Below are positions 30,538-39,810 of a DNA stretch of 64,000 bases, piece by piece. Position numbers and translations under genes: made by a program. The DNA comes from Methanotrichaceae archaeon. Lineage in GTDB: Archaea > Halobacteriota > Methanosarcinia > Methanotrichales > Methanotrichaceae. The stretch spans positions 212,623 to 276,622 of the forward strand of contig CAVWIG010000017.1 in the NCBI GenBank assembly GCA_963754945.1. Direction: 5' to 3'. Below the pieces are notes generated by a model. That model did no database searches, was not told where the DNA came from, and saw only the letters and a list, made by a program, of their open reading frames with translations. Within the stretch, counting starts at the first letter, position 1. Every line of letters starts with the position of its first letter.

Positions 30538-31995
30538 ATGATTATCTACAACACCATGAGCGGCAAGAAAGAGCCGTTTCAGCCAATTCACAAGAATCGC
30601 GTCAACATATTCGTCTGCGGACCAACTGTTTACGACAACTCTCACATCGGACACGCCAGGACCTACATAGCATTCGATGTCGTCGCTCGCTACCTCAAGT
30701 ACAAGGGCTTTTCCGTGTTTTATCTTCAGAACATCACCGATGTTGACGATAAGATCATACAGAGGGCTTCGGAGCTAGGCATTGAGCCGGACGCTTTGGC
30801 GCGCAAGTTTGAGCGAAGGTACTTGGAGGATATGCAGGCGTTGGGCGTGACAAATGTCAACCTCTACGCCAGGGCGACAGAGCACATTCCCGAGATCATC
30901 AGCCAGATTGAGCGGCTCGTGGAGTTGGGTTTTGCTTACGAGACGGAGACTGGTGTTTACTTCGACGAATCTAGATTCGAGGACTTCGGGAAGCTGTCGC
31001 ATCAGACTTTTGAGGAGGTTGCGCGCCACAGGATAGAGCCCGATCCGACCAAGAGGAACCCGGGAGATTTCTCTTTATGGAAGAAACGGGAAGACGGGGC
31101 TAAGGTAACCTGGGATTCGTCTTGGGGAAGAGGACGACCAGGATGGCACATCGAGGACACGGCCATCACGGAGACCTATTTCGGACCTCAGTACGATATC
31201 CATGGCGGAGCAATGGACCTAATATTCCCCCACCACGAGGCAGAGATCGCTCAGATGGAGGCGACGTCAGGAAAAAAGCCACTGGTTAGGGCTTGGATGC
31301 ACACCGGCTTTCTCAACGTCAAGGGCGAGAAGATGTCTAAGTCCCTGGGAAATTTCATGACCATAAGGGAAATGCTGGAGAGATGCGATGCCGAAGCTTT
31401 CAGATTGTTCGTCCTCCTTGCTCACTACCGATCACCAATTGATTTTTCCGAAGAGGTGCTGGAGCAGTCTCGAAAGAGCCTTGAAAGAATTCGCCATCTG
31501 ATCAAGGTCATCGAAGAACAATTAGAAACGCCCGGCGAGATCTCGGAAAGCGAAGGTGTCGACCCAATACTGATCAAGGCAAGAGCTGAGTTCTTGGATG
31601 CGATGGACGATGATTTCAATACGCCTTACGCGCTTCGAACCGTATTCGACCTGGTGAGGGATATAAACCGCAGAATAAACGAAAAAAACGTATCGAAGGA
31701 GACTTTAAAGGATACGAAACTGCTGCTGGAGGAGTTCGGCAGGGTCTTCGGAATCAGCTTTTCTTCCGGGTCAGAAAAATCCATAGGAAAAGAAGAAGAC
31801 ATGGCTCGCGACCTGATCGAGCTGCTTATCGAAATAAGGCAGAAGCTCCGCGAAAAAAAGGACTGGCAGCTCGCCGATGAGATACGTAACAGGATGAAGG
31901 AATTGAACGTCGTGTTGGAGGATGCCGAAGGAGGTGGCAAATATACACTTCGAGGAGAGAATTGCCTTAATCGCAAAACTTATAACCTTCAATAA
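30538..31995 (+). CDS. cysS: Cysteinyl-tRNA synthetase
   Basis: MIIYNTMSG start; CGPTVY, HIGH, GRPGWHIED, FPHHEAE and KMSKS motifs. Confidence 0.97.
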   Translation: MIIYNTMSGKKEPFQPIHKNRVNIFVCGPTVYDNSHIGHARTYIAFDVVARYLKYKGFSVFYLQNITDVDDKIIQRASELGIEPDALARKFERRYLEDMQALGVTNVNLYARATEHIPEIISQIERLVELGFAYETETGVYFDESRFEDFGKLSHQTFEEVARHRIEPDPTKRNPGDFSLWKKREDGAKVTWDSSWGRGRPGWHIEDTAITETYFGPQYDIHGGAMDLIFPHHEAEIAQMEATSGKKPLVRAWMHTGFLNVKGEKMSKSLGNFMTIREMLERCDAEAFRLFVLLAHYRSPIDFSEEVLEQSRKSLERIRHLIKVIEEQLETPGEISESEGVDPILIKARAEFLDAMDDDFNTPYALRTVFDLVRDINRRINEKNVSKETLKDTKLLLEEFGRVFGISFSSGSEKSIGKEEDMARDLIELLIEIRQKLREKKDWQLADEIRNRMKELNVVLEDAEGGGKYTLRGENCLNRKTYNLQ

Positions 31996-32020
31996 CAAGT
32001 GTTAATTCGGTGAGCTTAAA

Positions 32021-32303
32021 ATGAGGGATCTATTTTGCCAACCCCGGATATGAACAGCCGAGTTCGAAGATAGAGCGCCTGCCGCCATCAGCAAAGCTTG
32101 TTCTTAAAGTGCTGGAGTCAGGCAGCCTTTTAACGCAGAAGGACATAATAAGAAAGACGTATCTTCCGGCAAGAACCGTAAGGTACGCTTTGAGCAGACT
32201 TAAAGACGAGGACCTTCTTCAGGAACGCTTCTATTTCCAGGATGCGCGCCAGAGCCTCTATGGGCTGAATGCCCAAGCCCTGGAGGTGACGACGACCGCA
32301 TAA
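32021..32303 (+). CDS. Winged-HTH regulator, predicted +1 frameshift at TTT-TGC (32033-32038)
   Basis: Paralog of the 24010 C-terminus. Homology (LPPSAKLV) extends upstream of GTG 32109 with no in-frame start; SD-preceded ATG 32021 is out of frame. Confidence 0.75.
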
Positions 32304-32469
32304 ATTATTTTCTAATTATTATGTATAAAGTTATCAGGTGATGGGGATTGCAATCACGGATCGTTGAACAGTTCAATTGGATATTCCCGTGCTGATGCTG
32401 CCTGGCCAGGTTGGTTTGCCTGGTATGGGTTCTTCTTCTCCGCTGCCACCTTCCACATTTCGGGAGGCT

Positions 32470-32820
32470 TTAGTTTGGGCGTACTGATAAAGGAATTCGA
32501 GGGATAAACGACTGTGCTATTTTGGGAGACCTAAGAGGCAAGGAGCACCAATATGGCACGCCTCCTGGATGATAGAATTCAAGATGCGCAACGTGTGCCT
32601 GGGCAGAAAGCTGAGAAGAGCCTTTTGTAGCGCCGTGAAAGGCTATGTGTCGTAATAAGGAGGGAGGCAAAAGTCTTGGTGTAGGAGGGAGAAAAGAGGT
32701 GTATCGACTTTTGCCTATTACTAATACGACTATTGCCGAAATATAAGGTTTTCGCTCCAGGGTAGTGAGGTGTAGTCTCATACAATAAATGACCGAAATA
32801 GAGAAAATCGAATACTCAAG
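32470..32820 (+). ncRNA. Candidate structured ncRNA A
   Basis: Nested helices CTATTTTGG/CCGAAATAG, GGCACGC/GTGTGCC, AGCCTTTT/GAAAGGCT and AGGCAAAAGTC/GACTTTTGCCT; G-U pairs favour the + strand. Confidence 0.45.
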
Positions 32821-33282
32821 CGGGGCCAACGCCGATCCACAGCGCCCTTGTAGGAGGAACCTGTCAGTGTGCAGGCCTGACTCCGCTCAGAGTTCGATCA
32901 TATGCCTGGGCTAGAAGGCGGCACGGCACTGGAATTTCACACAGCGCCCATTTCATAGGGACCCCAAGGCATCGTGAGATGTGGGTCTCGTGCTCGCCTT
33001 CCGCCTTCGGCTTGTGACGCGTCATGCCCCGGCCGTGTATTGACGCCAAGCTGTCGGCAGATTGCTACGCAAGTTACGGCGTGCAACTTTCCTCTGCTGA
33101 ATATCAGCTTAACAGGCTCGTAGCCGAATGCAGTGCCACGAAGGCATGCATCTCCTGGAACAAGGACGCGATCCACCCTAGAAGCGACCGCATGCTCACC
33201 CATCGATAGGGCAAACATCCAAATCTCCTTGCCAAACAGAGCATTATCAGATACGTTAAGCCCACGGCACACCCGCCACCCT
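32820..33282 (-). ncRNA. Candidate large structured ncRNA B (about 460 nt)
   Basis: Many G-U-containing helices on the - strand, a possible pseudoknot, TATA box at 33311-33305, and no credible ORF. Confidence 0.6.
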
Positions 33283-33302
33283 TTGCATGGCGCGCCAAAT
33301 TA

Positions 33303-33323
33303 ACTATATAATCGTTATACATA
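33303..33323. promoter_or_regulatory. Divergent TATA-box region
   Basis: AT island ACTATATAATCGTTATACATA between two GC-rich structured segments. Confidence 0.5.
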
Positions 33324-33586
33324 TTTGTAGTTGTCGCTCGGAAACCAGCCTTTGGGTAAGTGCATAAACTGTTATTCGGAAGGAATAGCGAGCTTAAGGC
33401 AGGCGCTGGGTCAAACACAACCACGGCGTGGTGGCCGATTCAATCGGACGCCTCTCCTAGTTGGCAGGCGTGGGCCCACAATAGATTTGATATTGCAGAA
33501 AGATAATATTGTGGACAGCGCAAACCTATGAATGACTAGCAATTGCTCCGATTCGATATCAGCAATCTTGGAATGGTGGGCGAGAT

Positions 33587-34042
33587 ATGATCGAAAATAA
33601 GACACAGCTTTTGGCTGATTTGGCCTACATTGGCTCGAAAGTTCAAGCAAAGACCAGCGTGTACCTGATCGCTGGTGCGGCCCTTCTGTGGCATGGCTTG
33701 AAAGATGTCACTAAGGATATCGATATCTGTTGCTCATATGAAGAAGCTGACAGTATTGTATCGGAACTCAGGCTGTCTGGCAGGATGGAGTCGGTCACTG
33801 GTATCAACGAAATTCACTTCCTCCGGTTATTCCTGAAATCATTCACGCTTCAGATCTTCATCAACGAGGTGTGGATGGGCGATGAATACCAGCTTCTGGA
33901 AGCAGCCCACTGTGATTCACTCACATTTGGTGGTGTGGCCTTCTTGATTCCCGATATCAAAACTCTCATTATGATCCAGGATAGGCACATCCAAGCACTG
34001 TTCAACGATTGGAAGAAACTGAAAGGAGAGGTATCTGTCTGA
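33587..34042 (+). CDS. Nucleotidyltransferase-fold protein (DUF6036/AbiEii-like)
   Basis: YLIAGAAL..GLKDVTKDIDI signature. Confidence 0.75.
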   Translation: MIENKTQLLADLAYIGSKVQAKTSVYLIAGAALLWHGLKDVTKDIDICCSYEEADSIVSELRLSGRMESVTGINEIHFLRLFLKSFTLQIFINEVWMGDEYQLLEAAHCDSLTFGGVAFLIPDIKTLIMIQDRHIQALFNDWKKLKGEVSV

Positions 34043-34097
34043 ATTGTGATGAGGATATCAGCCTTTAGAGATTACTAATCTAAAGAGGGCAATGGCC

Positions 34098-34364
34098 TTA
34101 TCTTTCTCCTTTTAAAACACCCCATCCACGTTCTGTAAGCCGGATTTGATTCATGCCATTTTTGAGAGATTGCCCTTCTTCATAAGTACCAGATTGTGTA
34201 TTTATGAAACCCCATCTTTCCAAGCGTGTTAAGCGATCTCCAAATTCCGTTTCATCAAGCCCGAGGGCTCTATTGACATTGACCGGATTGACCCATTTGG
34301 TCAGGGATCTTTCAAGGATCGATTCGAGGATCTTCCTATCTGTTCCAACTATGTAATCAATCAT
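34098..34364 (-). CDS. Small winged-helix protein
   Basis: DRKILE, LTRLERWGFI and RLTERGW wHTH pattern. Confidence 0.65.
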   Translation of the reverse strand: MIDYIVGTDRKILESILERSLTKWVNPVNVNRALGLDETEFGDRLTRLERWGFINTQSGTYEEGQSLKNGMNQIRLTERGWGVLKGER

Positions 34365-34771
34365 CTCTACTCCAATTTATCCTAGCACGATGGATCTTCG
34401 CTGCGTATCTATCATACTAGCTAACAAATATCTATAATGATTGTTATTAACATATAAATACCATTCATAAGCTGAATGCGACCACCTCCGGCATGTTAAA
34501 TGCCGACCGAATATTCTATTTGACGAGGGCAGGAAATCCTGGAGACCTTTCAATTCCCAACCTTCGTATGCAGAGGGAATGCTCCAGAGGGCTGGTGGAG
34601 AAGACCTTCGTAAGGTACAATCTTATAATGCACTTATAAGTCGCTACGCCTAGTTACAGGACATTACATATATATAGATTATAATACTTATCGATTTGGG
34701 AACCAAAAGCTTTTTATTTAAAAATATCGTATTAAGAGAATCGCAGAATAAGTTTAAATGGAGAATTTAAA

Positions 34772-34918
34772 ATGCAAAATAAAAAAGATAAGAGAACAAA
34801 GGCTGATGTAGGGAAGACAGCGGCATCTGGAATCGCAGATGCAAAGAAAGGGGTAGCGGATGTGGGGAAGAAGGGAGCACATGGAAAAACTGATGGAAAG
34901 AAAGGGTGGAAAAAGTAG
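34772..34918 (+). CDS. 48-aa Lys/Gly/Ala-rich small protein
   Basis: MQNKKDKRTKADVGKTAASGIADAKKGVADVGKKGAHGKTDGKKGWKK*; GGAGA RBS; internal ADVGK repeat. Confidence 0.5.
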   Translation: MQNKKDKRTKADVGKTAASGIADAKKGVADVGKKGAHGKTDGKKGWKK

Positions 34919-35082
34919 GAAAAAAAGTAGGAACCTGCTATTCCCAAATGATTAGTTGTCCAAGCAGCCGGCCTGCACCTAGTCGAGCGGTAGCAGTGAT
35001 GATTGAATGATGCCACCTTCCTGTCTCATTTTTGAATTAACGGCTCGCCTGCCTTTCGACCCTGTCCTTTTCGCACCATTCC

Positions 35083-35847
35083 TTAATGATCATAGTAGAT
35101 TTGGGGCTGATTCCTCATCATGTACCCGAACCCTAATCCCACTAACAGGCCCGTCAGATGTGCAGCATGAGCTATGCTGTCTCCTGTTCCCATCATCATG
35201 AAGTCCATGAAGGCAAAGAGAACGACTGCATACTGAATCCTCAAGGGAATTATAAAGAATAGCAGTACTCGAATTTCAGGGGCAATTATGGCCAGACATC
35301 CCATGACACCGAAGAGGGCTCCGCTTGCGCCTAGAAGGGTTCCTGTGGACACCAGCATCTGTCCCAGAGCAGCAGCCAACCCCGAGAACATGTATATCTC
35401 AAGGAAACGGGTCTCGCCAACGCGCCTCTCCAGTTCTACGCCAAAGAAGAAGAGGAACAACATGTTCCAGAAGAGGTGGTCGAAGTTGGCATGGACGAAC
35501 ATGTGAGTAATGAGCGTCCAGGGCCTCTGCATAACATATGCCGGGTTCAGAGCGAGATAGCCGTAAACGAACCCCGGAGCAATTAGACTTAAGAGGGATA
35601 CAAACACGCAAATGGCCAGTATAGCCATTGAGTAGCTCACGGGAAGACCGGTCGGAATCTTGCTCTTCCAGCTTCGGTTCTCCCAAGGTGCTGGGTCGTT
35701 CCAGTCATCTTTGTGCCTGAAATCATCCCTGCCGCCTATTGAGGCAAGAATTGGCCCAAGAATCAATGATCTTGTATACCTGAGACGGTCGTTTAGGCTT
35801 TTGCCAGTATAATTTTTGCTAATATTATTTATCTCCTCACTTGCCAT
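35083..35847 (-). CDS. Rhomboid intramembrane serine protease
   Basis: PWTLITHMFVH, HLFWNM, GASGA and AHAAHLTG motifs. Confidence 0.9.
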   Translation of the reverse strand: MASEEINNISKNYTGKSLNDRLRYTRSLILGPILASIGGRDDFRHKDDWNDPAPWENRSWKSKIPTGLPVSYSMAILAICVFVSLLSLIAPGFVYGYLALNPAYVMQRPWTLITHMFVHANFDHLFWNMLFLFFFGVELERRVGETRFLEIYMFSGLAAALGQMLVSTGTLLGASGALFGVMGCLAIIAPEIRVLLFFIIPLRIQYAVVLFAFMDFMMMGTGDSIAHAAHLTGLLVGLGFGYMMRNQPQIYYDH

Positions 35848-35978
35848 GATCCCTCAAAATGTTTCTTGAAACACCATTGTTGAGTATATTATTGAGTACA
35901 TTACAGCGTGCATAGAATATGCTATCAATAAAGTTCGCCAATGCATTATAATTTATCCATTTATCTCTTACTATCGAA

Positions 35979-36464
35979 CTATTCAGTCACATACTGGCCG
36001 TCGCGCAGCACTATGACGTAATCCGCTGAGTTCCTGAGGGCCACTGAAAAGCCTGGCTCGGCTCCGAAGATTATGGTCTCCTTGCCGTGCTCCATGGCTT
36101 TCATCAGAACAGGTTTTAAGTCAGCGTCTCTGGTGACCATGGCGATGGTATCTATGACTGGATTATAGATCATGTCGATGCCCTCGACTGCCATCCTGAC
36201 GTCAACGTCACTGGTGCATATGACAGGTTCGAACCCCTGGTTCTCCACTGCCTCAACGAGTTTCTCAGATGCGTACTGGTTCAGGAACACCTTGCCCATC
36301 TTGATGTCGCCGTAATCCTTAAGGATGTCCCTAATCTCCTCAAGATCCATCTGGAACTCCTTGCGAAGCATGTTTGGACCATCCACTAGAAGACCTATCT
36401 TCTTTCTGCCTCTTTCCTTCTTGGAGCCAAGATAATTCATGATGTGTTCGAAGTGTATCGCCAT
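35979..36464 (-). CDS. NYN-domain protein (TIGR00288 family)
   Basis: LLVDGPNMLRKEF, DVDVRMAVE and TRDAD motifs. Confidence 0.9.
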   Translation of the reverse strand: MAIHFEHIMNYLGSKKERGRKKIGLLVDGPNMLRKEFQMDLEEIRDILKDYGDIKMGKVFLNQYASEKLVEAVENQGFEPVICTSDVDVRMAVEGIDMIYNPVIDTIAMVTRDADLKPVLMKAMEHGKETIIFGAEPGFSVALRNSADYVIVLRDGQYVTE

Positions 36465-36576
36465 CAGATCACATAATCCTTGAGATAACCCCAGACTGTA
36501 TCATATAAAAATCTATCTCATATATTATTTTATCTATCTTATACTCCGTCTACTCTTGTGTGTCCGTGCTCTCTTG

Positions 36577-37347
36577 TCACGGAATTTTGTAGATCTTCTT
36601 TATGTTCTTGGTGGTGGCAGAAGCGACCTCAGATGGCGATAGTCCTTTTATCTTGGCGATTAGCCTTACCGATTCGAGAACATTCATAGGTTCGTTCCTC
36701 CCTCGTTTTGGGGCAAGGAAAGGGCTGTCAGTCTCCACGAGAAGGTGATCTAGAGGGACGTTTCTAGCCAGCACTTGATGCTGACCGGAGCGGCACACAA
36801 CTGTTGCTAAAGAGATGTAGAAGCCTCGGTCCACTGCCTGCTTCATTGTATCCATGCTGCCGCCGTAACAGTGAAACACGACCTTGTCCAGGTCCTTTAC
36901 CATATCCAGGGCCTGCTGCTCGGCATCCCTTGAGTGGATAACCAGCGGAAGATCGACGGATTTGGCTAGGTCAATTACCTTCTGAAAGACCTGAACCTGA
37001 TGGTTCCTGGCCGCTTCATCTTTACACCTGTAATGATCCAGGCCCGCCTCCCCTATGCCAACGGCCTGACCGGCATTCTCTTTGATAAAATCAAGCTGAG
37101 ATTCCAGGTCCTTGTTGCTTGTCCCTTCCAGGGAGTTGGGTGAAAGCCCAAGAGTCGCCCGCATGAAGTCGTGCTTTTTCGCCAACTCCAGGCTCTTCCT
37201 GTTTGTGGCAATGTCGACGCCGGAGTTGATCATCATCACGACGCCCGCTTCTCGGGCCCTATTCATCACCGCGTCCCTGTCTTTATCGAAATGCTTGAAA
37301 TCGAGGTGACAGTGGGAATCTATTACCCCATCTCCGAACTCGTTCAA
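36577..37347 (-). CDS. tatD: TatD-family hydrolase
   Basis: IDSHCHLD, GIGEAGLD, VIHSRDA, FHCY and VETDSPF motifs. Confidence 0.93.
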   Translation of the reverse strand: MNEFGDGVIDSHCHLDFKHFDKDRDAVMNRAREAGVVMMINSGVDIATNRKSLELAKKHDFMRATLGLSPNSLEGTSNKDLESQLDFIKENAGQAVGIGEAGLDHYRCKDEAARNHQVQVFQKVIDLAKSVDLPLVIHSRDAEQQALDMVKDLDKVVFHCYGGSMDTMKQAVDRGFYISLATVVCRSGQHQVLARNVPLDHLLVETDSPFLAPKRGRNEPMNVLESVRLIAKIKGLSPSEVASATTKNIKKIYKIP

Positions 37348-38886
37348 TTGTGGTTTTCCTCCAAAAGCATCAATCTGTTTATGGCGCTGACAAGGGCCTC
37401 AACCGAGGCCATAACTATGTCCTCGCGTGCCGATCGGGCACTTACTTTCCTTCCGCGGTCGTCCTCGACCCCTATCACTACCTCAGCCAGGGCGTCTGAA
37501 CCTCCGGATATGGCCTCTATCCTGAAATCAGAGAGGCGTATGGACGCGTCGCCGTCCATGAGTCCCTGTACTGCCTTTAAAGCGGCATCGACAGGTCCAA
37601 CGCCGATGCTGGCCAGGACCTTCTCGTGACCACGCACTACGGCCTTAACAGTGGCTGTGGGGGTTATAATGTTCCCGGTCATCACTGAGACCTCTTTGAG
37701 CACCATAGCCTGGCTGGCCTTGGCCACCTCTCCAATGACCACGTCGGCTATGGTCTGAAGGTCGGCATCGGTGATCTGCTTTCCCTTGTCTCCCAGCTCT
37801 TTTATCCTATCCAGGATCTCATGGAGCTGCTCATCCGTTGGCCTGTAGCCAGCATCCTCGAGGACCTTCTTAACAGCGTGCCGGCCTGTGTGCTTTCCAA
37901 GGACTATCCTTCTTCTGTGGCCAACCATCTCAGGAGTCATTATGCCCGGCTCAAAGGTCTTGCTGTTTTCGAGGATTCCGTGGCTATGAATTCCGCTCTC
38001 GTGAGAGAAGGCGTTTTCACCGACTATGGGGGCAGTTATTGGTATTTTCGCTCCTGTTAACCGCTCAACAAGCCTTGCAGTCTCTACCAGGTACTCCGTT
38101 TTTATGCTCGTGGTTGCACCGTAAATTGAGTGCAGGCTCATCACAGTCTCTGCCAAATTTGCATTGCCAGCCCGCTCCCCCAGACCGTTGACGGTAACCT
38201 GGATCTCTCTCGCACCGGCCTCCACTGCGGAAAGGCTGTTGGCAACAGCGAGGCCGAAGTCGTTATGGCAGTGGACATCCACGACCATGTCAACGTACTC
38301 GCAGATCCCCTTCACAAAGGCGTAGAAGGCCGAAGGGACAGCAACTCCCACGGTGTCTGGGATGTTGATGATGTCGCAGTGGACCTCCTCGACTGCCTTG
38401 AAAATTCTGTGGAGGAACTCCGGGGATGTCCTGGTGGCGTCCATGGCAGAGAAGAGGCATGTCCTTCCCTGATCCTTCACGTATTCCACTGTCTCAACTG
38501 CCCCGGCCACTATCTCGTCGTGGCTCTTCTTTATCGTGTGGGCTATCTGGATGTCTGACGTTGGCACGAAGACGTGGACGAGACCAACATCAGCATCGAG
38601 ACAGGCTTGTGCGTCTGCCTTGACAATTCTGGAAAGTCCGCAGACCTGGGCAGAGAGGCCAGCTCGGGCAATTTGCCGGACGCTCTCGAACTCGCCCTTG
38701 GAAGACACAGGAAAACCAGCCTCGATGATGTTCACACCGAGCTTATCGAGCTGCCTGGCAATAGCAAGTTTCTTTTCAGGGGTGAGTGAAACACCCGGGG
38801 TCTGCTCTCCATCGCGGAGAGTCGTGTCAAAAATTCTAACTCTCTCGCCGCGAAGATCTCTTACATCGTAGAAGACGATCCCTCAT
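37344..38886 (-). CDS. leuA: 2-isopropylmalate synthase, predicted +1 frameshift at CTT-CTA (38874-38869)
   Basis: [15 protein letters not shown] is in frame upstream of the first in-frame start (GTG 38735). EAGFPVSS (LeuA-type), HCHND, GERAGN and HESGIH motifs; C-terminal allosteric domain. Confidence 0.88.
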
Positions 38887-39030
38887 AGAGGCTTCTTGCG
38901 TCATGTTTCATTGAGTGAGCCTCCGTTCTATAAAACTCTTGCCCCGAGGCCGCAATGCTACAAGGAATATTCAGCAAAGAATTCAGTAATTAATCTGGCG
39001 AAAAAAGAATTATGCAGGCGAGATTCACCT

Positions 39031-39810
39031 TCAGGTTGGCGAAGCACCCTGGTCCTTTGATGCCTGTTCCGCCTCGGCTGCCTTCTCTTCTGATTCCTTC
39101 GTCTCCTCAGAGCCCTCTTTGGCCGGAGGGGATATTACCTCGGCGCTGACCTTAGCCTCAGTGTGCTTCTCGATGAAATCGACCTCTTTCAAGCTGAGGT
39201 GCTGGATGATCATGTCCGCCAGGCCACGCCTGATCATCAGCCACTCTTTGTAGTAACCAAGCTCCCAGGGAACGATGATCGTGGCCACATCGTCCTCAAT
39301 CTTGGATTCCAGGTCCAATCGGGCGAAGGTCTTGATCAGGCTCTTGAGCTTCTCGGCCCGGTCTTCGATGCTCTCAAGGATCTTGTACTCGTAGACGATG
39401 GTCTTGTCTGCCAGGGGGTGGTTGAAGTCAACGATTGCCTTTCTTCCGATAATCCTGGTGACTGTCCCAACCTTGTTCTCGACACCTACTCTCATCCCGG
39501 GCACGGGTTTCTTATCCTTGAATTTGTTGATGGGTATGCTCTCCACTTTCGTGGGATCGTGGGTTCCAAAGGCCTTTTCAGGCGGGATCTCGACCAACCC
39601 TGCGTATCCTATCTCCTTGCCGATTAGGTCTTCCTCCATGCCTGCTACGAGCTGACCAGAACCTACAACGATTAAGTGGGGGCCGTACTGGCACTCTTCA
39701 TCGAAGATGCCTTTGGCAGTGGCCACCTCTTTATCGGTAGCTGCTATGACTTGTCCATCAACGCTCTCAGTATAATCGATCCTTATAAAATCGCCATTTT
39801 TTACAGCCAT
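39031..39810 (-). CDS. Long-type FKBP peptidyl-prolyl isomerase (SlyD-like)
   Basis: GDFIRIDYT, EIPPEKAFG and VDFNHPLA motifs. Confidence 0.92.
   Translation of the reverse strand: MAVKNGDFIRIDYTESVDGQVIAATDKEVATAKGIFDEECQYGPHLIVVGSGQLVAGMEEDLIGKEIGYAGLVEIPPEKAFGTHDPTKVESIPINKFKDKKPVPGMRVGVENKVGTVTRIIGRKAIVDFNHPLADKTIVYEYKILESIEDRAEKLKSLIKTFARLDLESKIEDDVATIIVPWELGYYKEWLMIRRGLADMIIQHLSLKEVDFIEKHTEAKVSAEVISPPAKEGSEETKESEEKAAEAEQASKDQGASPT

Follow-up and report, generated by a model that had tools for sequence, protein, structure and literature searches.

We analyzed a 64,000-nucleotide (nt) stretch of the genome of a Methanotrichaceae archaeon (hereafter the window; the genome holding it is G000, other G numbers denote genomes and L numbers loci), in which two unrelated genes, leuA, encoding 2-isopropylmalate synthase, and a gene encoding a winged-helix regulator next to cysS, lack a usable in-frame start codon for their conserved N-termini. 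The explanation of both genes that we favor, with somewhat better than even confidence, is a programmed +1 ribosomal frameshift under the control of a hungry codon, that is, of a sense codon whose charged tRNA is scarce. That a frameshift is needed for expression at all appears very probable; that the ribosome slips at the conserved sequence YUU-Y is likely, and that the shift senses amino acids is slightly favored. We infer the occurrence of the slip, its site and its response to aminoacyl-tRNA supply from the sequences of the window and of related loci. Throughout, the zero frame is the short open reading frame (ORF) in the -1 register that is opened by an out-of-frame ATG, and the main frame is that of the product. 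The features of the two genes, including their Shine-Dalgarno (SD) sequences and the TFB recognition element (BRE) of the promoter, are as follows.

37344 to 38882, minus strand: leuA main frame, 512 codons plus stop, closed upstream by the TGA at 38885-38883; decoding after the proposed shift would proceed from UAC at 38870-38868
38929 to 38935, minus strand: TATA box TTTTATA of leuA, recognized from sequence, with a purine-rich BRE-like AAGAG before it
38836 to 38904, minus strand: leuA zero-frame short ORF of 22 codons, its AUG the predicted 5′ end of a leaderless mRNA
38877 to 38884, minus strand: SD-like element GAGGGAUC of the leuA cassette, from its predicted duplex with the 16S rRNA tail
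38872 to 38874, minus strand: codon 11 of the zero frame, CUU, the putative slip codon of leuA; re-pairing of tRNA-Leu(GAG) is possible on UUC at 38873-38871
38869 to 38871, minus strand: putative leuA sensor codon CUA (Leu, zero-frame codon 12)
32025 to 32303, plus strand: main frame of the winged-helix regulator, 92 codons plus TAA, closed upstream by the TGA at 32022-32024; decoding after the proposed shift would proceed from GCC at 32037-32039
32009 to 32013, plus strand: SD sequence GGUGA, 7 nt before the zero-frame AUG of the regulator
32021 to 32053, plus strand: regulator zero-frame short ORF, MRDLFCQPRI followed by TGA
32023 to 32030, plus strand: SD-like element GAGGGAUC of the regulator cassette, from its predicted duplex with the 16S rRNA tail
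32033 to 32035, plus strand: putative regulator slip codon UUU; tRNA-Phe(GAA) would re-pair on UUU at 32034-32036
32036 to 32038, plus strand: putative regulator sensor codon UGC (Cys)

The initial annotation of this DNA had reported that both genes begin with the same 10-mer, and ATGAGGGATC is indeed found at 32021-32030 (+) and 38877-38886 (-), in each case with an ATG one base 5′ of the TGA that closes the long conserved frame (A-TGA-GGG-ATC). Its observation that neither conserved N-terminus has a usable in-frame start also stands, as canonical starts come late in both frames. In leuA the first in-frame ATG, GTG or TTG is the GTG at 38735, 49 codons after the GGG and beyond a conserved 10-residue motif, and in the regulator this start is again a GTG, at 32109, 28 codons into the frame and within the first helix of the domain. 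On its own, the 10-mer match carries little weight: chance predicts 0.30 matches in the window, at least two arose in 7 of 100 shuffles, and one of the five copies of ATGAGGGATC in the genome is an ordinary ORF start. It is the conservation in relatives that places the feature beyond chance. A shared motif, RGG-RAU-YNN-YUU-Y, is retained from the earlier proposal of a common cassette, while the exact identity of the two copies is partly coincidental, as codon 7 of leuA is GTG, CTG, GCG or CAG in other genera. The slip and sensor codons were likewise correctly identified (CTT-CTA at 38874-38869 and TTT-TGC at 32033-32038); their numbering in leuA as codons 5-6 was not, because the likely start, the ATG at 38904-38902, lies six codons further upstream and makes them codons 11-12. 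The junction peptide MRDRL-YDVR proposed for LeuA has to be revised as well, as a longer zero-frame N-terminus from the likely start at 38904 would replace its MRDRL part. As a separate observation, 72 copies of ATGAGGATC were counted in G000, some three times what would naively be expected.

Conservation of the leuA layout was assessed on 38 loci, made up of the best locus of each genome and eight more taken from named genome records. Homologues of leuA are present in 31/31 genomes of the window’s class, and the frame layout recurs in 29 of 30 relatives, including the one-contig genomes G020, G022, G026 and G029. The cassette layout is found in 37/38 loci, the exception being L023, and ranges over three families of the window’s class, the Methanomicrobiales (L093-L096, L099, L100) and a Halorutilales genome (L097). 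No canonical in-frame start lies between the upstream stop and the conserved GGN in 32 of these 37 loci, and 26 of them have none anywhere ahead of the FDTT motif. The nearest database proteins are named Methanothrix or Methanotrichaceae, and the database LeuA proteins of Methanocella and Methanoperedens share the GIVFY N-terminus; public databases mis-annotate both leuA and the regulator, either truncated or with CTG/ATC pseudo-starts. The Halorutilales leuA (L097:1440-1560) carries the cassette-like sequence GGA ATC GTT TTT TGG with TTG, again Leu, as sensor; a zero-frame ATG was not seen there, and upstream of it lie a short main-frame ORF ending in GGG ATC TGA and an inverted repeat, GAAGGGA/TCCCTTC.

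The regulator is conserved in the same manner. All 20 distinct genome loci start ATG AGG GAT C.. YTT TGY with a TGA immediately ahead of the GGG, and each has an SD sequence, GGTGA or GGAG, about 7 nt before the zero-frame ATG. Among 78 rows from 80 metagenome loci, 54 read A-TGA-GGGATY, 23 are GGAATC or TGGATC variants, some of which hold three extra zero-frame codons, and one ends at a contig edge; the layout is present in 92/92 distinct regulator cassettes collected. Conservation across families and orders, complete one-contig genomes included, bears out the check that the initial annotation had put forward. All of its comparative checks favored its interpretation, which is thereby supported in part. 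Its own caveat of an indel error found no support: the leuA site recurs in independent short-read DNA contigs (X1 record 3, 38685-39000, 0 gaps; X2 record 25, 38827-38934, 0 differences) and in an RNA contig (X15 record 12, 38779-38892, 0 gaps), and the relatives show no conserved in-frame ATG. The layout is confirmed as real and is not a sequencing error.

The product of leuA was identified by NCBIfam NF002085 (713.9 bits against a cut-off of 517), which matches residues 13-507 only, and LeuA homologues carry PF00682, PF22617 and PF08502. In family-f1 loci a BRE/TATA element (…AAAGTTTTATA) ends 23-25 nt before the ATG of the short ORF. Archaeal promoters follow a rule of distance between TATA box and transcription start, and this spacing would place the start at the AUG itself, so that the leuA mRNA looks leaderless, with its 5′ end at the short-ORF AUG 38904. 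Two metatranscriptome runs from different studies gave contigs over leuA at a depth of 80-370 that end with adapter at 38892 and 38895; RNA depth is zero past 38908 in both runs, and DNA contigs continue. These contig ends are a weak but concordant hint of a leaderless start. At 38905-38910 (-), G000 reads ATGAAAC where two congeners read ATGAAC or ATGAGC, which gives G000 an extra upstream ATG in the third frame; in L002 and L003 that ATG is in the short-ORF frame. The extra ATG sits upstream of the predicted transcription start.

In family f1 and most of f3, the zero-frame ORF of leuA opens seven codons ahead of the cassette. Over its codons 2-7, pairwise amino-acid identity is 0.57 in the zero frame versus 0.34 in the other two frames, and past the cassette the main frame is the best conserved (0.36 vs 0.22 and 0.19). 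Judging from these alignments, selection changes frame at the cassette, the zero frame being kept upstream and the main frame downstream. In 29/37 leuA loci the F of FDTT lies 17 codons from the GGN, with a linker of variable sequence (L001-L030, L091).

To delimit the region in which the shift would occur, counts were taken over 37 leuA and 92 regulator cassettes (129 in total). In many loci a main-frame stop overlaps zero-frame codons 7/8 (leuA numbering), and the zero frame meets its earliest stops at codon 13 in leuA (9 loci) and at codon 7 in the regulator (21 of 54 metagenome loci); intersecting the two sets of stops leaves five codons, NGG-RAU-YNN-YUU-X, common to both genes. The search pattern imposed AT[CT] and TT[CT], so that the UU of the P-site codon and the Y after it are preset in the counts that follow; base 1 of the fourth codon, base 3 of GGN and the last two bases of X were left free. 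The first codon ends in GG in 128/129 cassettes, the AU of the second is invariant, and the third begins with a pyrimidine in 129/129. In all 129, CUU or UUU stands in fourth place with C or U after it (74 CUU and 18 UUU among the 92 regulator cassettes); the first base of this codon is always a pyrimidine though it is the third position of a main-frame Val, Ala, Asp, Ile, Tyr or Asn codon. Genes for tRNA-Leu(gag) and tRNA-Phe(gaa) are present in the genome. YUU-Y is favored as the slip site because only the tRNAs that read CUU and UUU can re-pair on UUC or UUU; those on AUU or GUU could not. ARAGORN additionally listed two ‘tRNA-???’ genes in G000, at C18:101136-101232 and C28:31548-31640, whose anticodons have four bases (gtta) and two bases (tc); they are probably mis-parsed intron-containing archaeal tRNAs, and neither matches the cassette codons.

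The fifth codon, X, is Leu in 37/37 leuA cassettes (CTA 29, CTT 6, the others TTA, CTG and TTG), where the overlapping main-frame residue varies between Y, F, C and W, and Cys in 92/92 regulator cassettes (UGC 78, UGU 14). The initial annotation had proposed to ask whether the sensor codon tracks the pathway; its identity is constant within each family, but only two gene families bear on the question (n = 2). A Cys codon at X dictates that the overlapping main-frame Phe codon is UUU and that the next main-frame codon begins with G and has C or T as its second base. The Phe codon is UUU in 92/92 regulator cassettes although UUC makes up 65% of the Phe codons of the genome, and leuA of the same family uses UUC; the residue after the G[C/U]N codon is hypervariable. 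From these sequence patterns, the regulator is a stronger test of sensor-codon selection than leuA. The main-frame motif GIxF is invariant in the two unrelated proteins, is followed by variable linkers (hypervariable and with indels in the regulator), and is not covered by the LeuA family model.

The 3′ end of the genome’s 16S rRNA reads GGAUCACCUCCU, and GAGGGAUC pairs with that tail over 8 bp with one bulged rRNA base (A), at -11.5 kcal/mol in leuA and -12.2 kcal/mol in the regulator, in agreement with the earlier statement that GAGG-GATC is complementary to the anti-SD with one bulge. Both elements fall in the top 1% of background coding 12-mers, which have a mean of -3.8 kcal/mol and a 1st percentile of -10.7 kcal/mol. 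Averaged over all cassettes, the duplex energy is -9.0 kcal/mol for leuA and -10.0 kcal/mol for the regulator, and 75% of regulator cassettes lie under the background 5th percentile. Substitutions are mostly compatible with wobble pairing to the 16S rRNA (A or G at the first base, C or U at the last). The third position of codon 7 is G in 35/37 leuA cassettes, and GGC is used at the main-frame GGN in 0/129 cassettes, though it is the commonest Gly codon; third positions that are constrained in this way fit pairing with the 16S tail. No conserved RNA secondary structure was detected by the alignment fold of 27 of the 37 leuA loci (-0.07 kcal/mol, 4 pairs, no covariation), and Rfam found only tRNA in 30300-39100. 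Neither the alignment fold nor Rfam showed the mutually exclusive terminator and antiterminator hairpins that a transcription attenuator would have after the leader ORF.

Taken together, we hypothesize that both genes are expressed via a programmed +1 frameshift on the short linear cassette NGG RAU YNN YUU X. Translation would initiate in the zero frame, in leuA at the 5′-terminal AUG 38904 of a leaderless mRNA and in the regulator at the SD-led AUG 32021. When CUU or UUU occupies the P site, the A site would hold the Leu codon CUA in leuA or the Cys codon UGC in the regulator. Prompt delivery of the charged tRNA would keep the ribosome in frame and lead to termination within 1-11 codons, yielding a useless peptide. 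If the charged tRNA were scarce, the A site would stay empty and the peptidyl-tRNA-Leu(GAG) or -Phe(GAA) could slip by one base onto UUC or UUU, after which decoding would proceed in the LeuA or regulator frame. The G-rich GAGG-GAUC, 2 nt upstream of the slip codon, would pair with the 3′ tail of the 16S rRNA and may stimulate or position the slip, by a pause, by positioning, or by a change of register between its two half-sites. The result would be feedback, in which Leu shortage gives more LeuA, and Cys shortage gives more of a regulator whose gene lies, in this genome, in a tRNA-Cys/cysS cluster.

Several observations weigh against this interpretation, beyond the bases that the search pattern preset. 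Given the phylogenetic relatedness of the loci, the counts exaggerate their independence. Scattered, non-homologous in-frame ATG or TTG codons lie upstream of the GGN in L005, L008, L015, L019 and L096, and in these five leuA loci the shift may not be obligatory. Pairing with the 16S tail is weak in some cassettes (L004, -6.7 kcal/mol), and only 54% of leuA cassettes fall under the background 5th percentile. The aligned spacing from anti-SD to slip codon is 4-5 nt, compared with a mode of 5 and a range of 3-8 for initiation in this genome; a compressed spacing of the prfB type is therefore not supported, and the explanation by a compressed spacer does not transfer from prfB. The Leu sensor in leuA is partly automatic, since a main-frame F followed by a T-initial codon gives Leu, and its covariation (TTC before TTY) holds in 6/6 loci that are all Methanomicrobiales, which makes it a weak argument. 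CUA is uncommon but not very rare (9.1 per 1000 codons, 10% of Leu codons), UGC is used at 7.9 per 1000, and the genome has three tRNA-Cys genes. The regulator has cysS as its upstream neighbor in a minority of loci, about 7/21 genome loci and 7/80 metagenome loci. Cassette variation falls mainly at main-frame third positions (entropy 3.94 vs 0.31 and 1.16), as would follow equally from main-frame translation of G-I-V-F-Y. Finally, a GGG triplet always coincides with codon 8 (AGG-G, UGG-G, GGG-A/G/U), which would fit a slip there too.

The first alternative to be weighed accepts the +1 shift at YUU-Y but takes it to be constitutive or tuned otherwise, for example to fixed low expression, tRNA modification or general translation status, with the Leu and Cys identities as by-products of main-frame residues. 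We consider it unlikely, though it has points in its favor: a main-frame F-Y yields a Leu codon automatically, the aromatic residue after F (Y/F/W/C) could itself be selected, cysS linkage is low in the metagenome loci, and only two families carry the cassette. Against it, the overlapping main-frame residue of leuA in L011 is Cys, yet the zero-frame codon is still Leu. The regulator’s exclusive use of UUU against the UUC preference, always followed by a G[C/U]N codon, is also poorly accounted for, as is the correspondence between a leucine-pathway gene with a Leu codon and a gene beside tRNA-Cys and cysS with a Cys codon.

An earlier +1 slip at codon 8 (NGG followed by G or A), with the main frame read from AUY to give x-I-V-F-Y, is improbable. 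The tracking of main-frame third positions by cassette variation would suit it, AGG and UGG always stand before G and GGG before A, G or U, as expected from re-pairing by tRNAs with C34 versus U34, and in many loci the main-frame stop is directly ahead of the GGG. The GCG-G of L099 and the AUG-G of L186, however, are unable to re-pair, and tRNA-Trp on UGG would meet a first-position mismatch. A slip at codon 8 would also leave unexplained the invariant YUU-Y, the pyrimidine that ends main-frame codon 3 (129/129) and the N-terminal I-x-F of both proteins, and its A-site codon, Asp or Asn, is related to neither gene.

It is similarly hard to credit that no frameshift takes place, translation starting at the in-frame AUC or AUU (Ile) and the short ORF acting as a separate regulatory upstream ORF. 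The AUY is invariant, and the database LeuA proteins of Methanocella and Methanoperedens are annotated from that codon as MVFY. The conserved initiation signals nevertheless serve the other frame, namely the TATA-placed 5′ AUG of leuA and the SD and AUG of the regulator. The only SD-like element abuts the AUY at 0-1 nt, against a genome spacing mode of 5, and a ribosome on the short ORF would occlude the AUY. Near-cognate starts are very weak, while leuA is biosynthetic and well transcribed; the conserved G-G before AUY, the YUU-Y rule and the codon identities would all be left without explanation. Lastly, an assembly or sequencing indel, or a pair of decaying pseudogenes, has a negligible chance: the assembly consists of 54 contigs, is 88% complete and has a GGG run at the site, but 29 of 30 relatives and metagenome contigs of many projects have the same layout, the independent DNA and RNA contigs are free of indels, and the downstream main frame is under purifying selection.

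The initial annotation had suggested scanning for such cassettes ahead of other genes; in G000 and five complete relatives, the scan returned leuA and the regulator only. A motif scan of G000 (GGR-ATY-NNN-TTY) gave 225 matches and 6 candidates, of which only the two known sites hold; C44:6366 was discarded as apparently antisense or non-coding, and C44:31371 as ribosomal protein L10e with an ordinary TTG start. A motif-free scan of ORF geometry in G000 gave 150 sites, among which the two cassettes take the top two places by anti-SD energy, and yielded no further cassette gene. In five complete family-f3 genomes, 40 of the 43 AGGGATCNNYTTY matches were inspected (the remaining three are L024, L028 and L048), and the geometry is found only in leuA (5 genomes) and the regulator (4 genomes). 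Two other candidates were set aside, L258 being antisense to a real ORF and L066, though flagged, having no ATG and an implausible product. The 43 matches to AGGGATCNNYTTY in these genomes (G020, G022, G026, G029 and G030), 9 of which are cassettes, compare with 4 for a reversed control, an excess that may reflect codon or dipeptide bias.

One genome lacks the cassette in both genes. In G019 (1.5 Mb, family f2; loci L023 and L046), leuA has an in-frame TTG and a decayed remnant, GAG ATT ACA TTC TCT, and an in-frame ATG is present in the regulator. An altered 16S tail was rejected as the cause, the tail being identical to the others. The double absence hints at co-loss and at a shared trans-acting requirement; because both cassettes are missing from one genome, both would rely on some common feature of the translation apparatus. 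Whether the five codons form a portable cassette that substitutes for attenuation at the translational level in methanogens (Methanosarcinia/Methanomicrobia), built of a gapped anti-SD element, CUU or UUU and a programmable sensor codon, reading leucine at leuA and cysteine at the regulator and sharing a need for that feature of the apparatus, we regard as evenly balanced.

The gene order around the regulator in the window is tRNA-Cys, cysS, regulator, the first two being annotated as follows.

30466 to 30536, plus strand: tRNA-Cys(GCA) gene, found by ARAGORN and by Rfam RF00005 (53.4 bits)
30538 to 31995, plus strand: cysS, cysteinyl-tRNA synthetase (Pfam tRNA-synt_1e, E = 1.3e-115), with its true ATG at 30538

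The regulator itself is only marginally assigned by Pfam HTH_24 (22.7 bits against a cut-off of 21.9), while MarR_2 is under its cut-off (21.2 vs 27) and similarity to MsvR is far under its own; a profile search found no PDB relative. The mature protein of this genome contains no cysteine. In other loci its neighbors include a Cys/Met pyridoxal-phosphate enzyme (L035), a DUF169 protein, a radical-SAM protein, a gas-vesicle protein and UvrB. Synteny with cysS was rejected as proof of a cysteine role since the linkage is only partial; with cysS a minority neighbor, the connection of the regulator to cysteine is suggestive and is not established. The tRNA-Cys gene ends 1 nt before the cysS ATG at 30538, and the mechanically listed ORF start, GTG 30472, reads through the tRNA; 3′ processing of tRNA-Cys would leave a nearly leaderless cysS mRNA. 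At the other gene, the leuA stop overlaps by 4 nt (37344-37347) the TTG start of an ORF for a TatD-family hydrolase (36577-37347, -), and the genes downstream of leuA, encoding the TatD protein, an NYN-domain protein and a rhomboid protein, are not leucine genes.

Among the closest known counterparts of the proposed cassette is the bacterial release factor 2 gene prfB, with which it would share a short 5′ zero-frame ORF, a +1 slip from a CUU in the P site onto a UUY-type pairing, a slow A-site sensor, an SD-like element just upstream and feedback of the gene on its own function. The cassette differs in that its sensor is a sense codon (Leu or Cys) where prfB uses the UGA stop, in its archaeal host and its occurrence in two unrelated genes, and in an element, GAGG-GAUC, that has a one-base gap and an uncompressed spacing. 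The yeast Ty1 site CUU-AGG-C and the hungry-codon shifts of E. coli would be alike in that a P-site tRNA-Leu leaves CUU during the wait for a scarce aminoacyl-tRNA in the A site; unlike here, the limiting tRNA of Ty1 is constitutively rare and sets a fixed ratio, whereas a codon that matches the pathway suggests regulation. To our knowledge, no natural amino-acid-biosynthesis gene is under hungry-codon frameshift control. In leuL attenuation of the bacterial leu operon, Leu codons of a leader ORF also report Leu-tRNA charging and control leuA, but through alternative hairpins, which are lacking here; the control proposed in the archaeon is translational and would fuse leader and enzyme in one polypeptide. 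The antizyme +1 frameshift, a polyamine sensor, similarly reads a metabolite level as frameshift efficiency with negative feedback, yet it is eukaryotic and relies on an A-site stop codon and a downstream pseudoknot, with no such features here. The AUU autoregulation of infC (IF3) resembles the present genes in having an in-frame AUY at the expected start position, and differs from them in that here no suitably spaced SD serves the AUY and the conserved initiation signals are in another frame.

Laboratory work on hungry-codon frameshifting is cited in PMC8211752. Cellular frameshift genes reported in archaea (PMC1616953, PMC5009743) include fucA1 of Sulfolobus solfataricus and candidate Mg-chelatase genes; these shifts are in the -1 direction at A-rich heptamers and involve no amino-acid sensor, unlike the cassette proposed here. 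The initial annotation knew of no description of such a system, which is matched by the literature searched, within the accessible text of each source. This literature, including recoding reviews and the M. mazei ribosome-profiling paper PMC11456600, contains no description of the cassette, supplementary lists of small ORFs and frameshifts being outside its scope; the same applies to the accessible parts of PMC8211752, PMC5009743 and PMC12713407, and the word ‘isopropylmalate’ occurs 0 times in the available text of PMC3711429.

Confirmation would make this the first case of a +1 programmed frameshift with a regulatory role in a cellular gene of an archaeon, and the first of a natural biosynthetic enzyme turned on by a hungry sense codon. 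It would explain how amino-acid supply is coupled to expression in archaea, which lack classical attenuation, and the cassette, being short and modular, may serve as a tunable switch.

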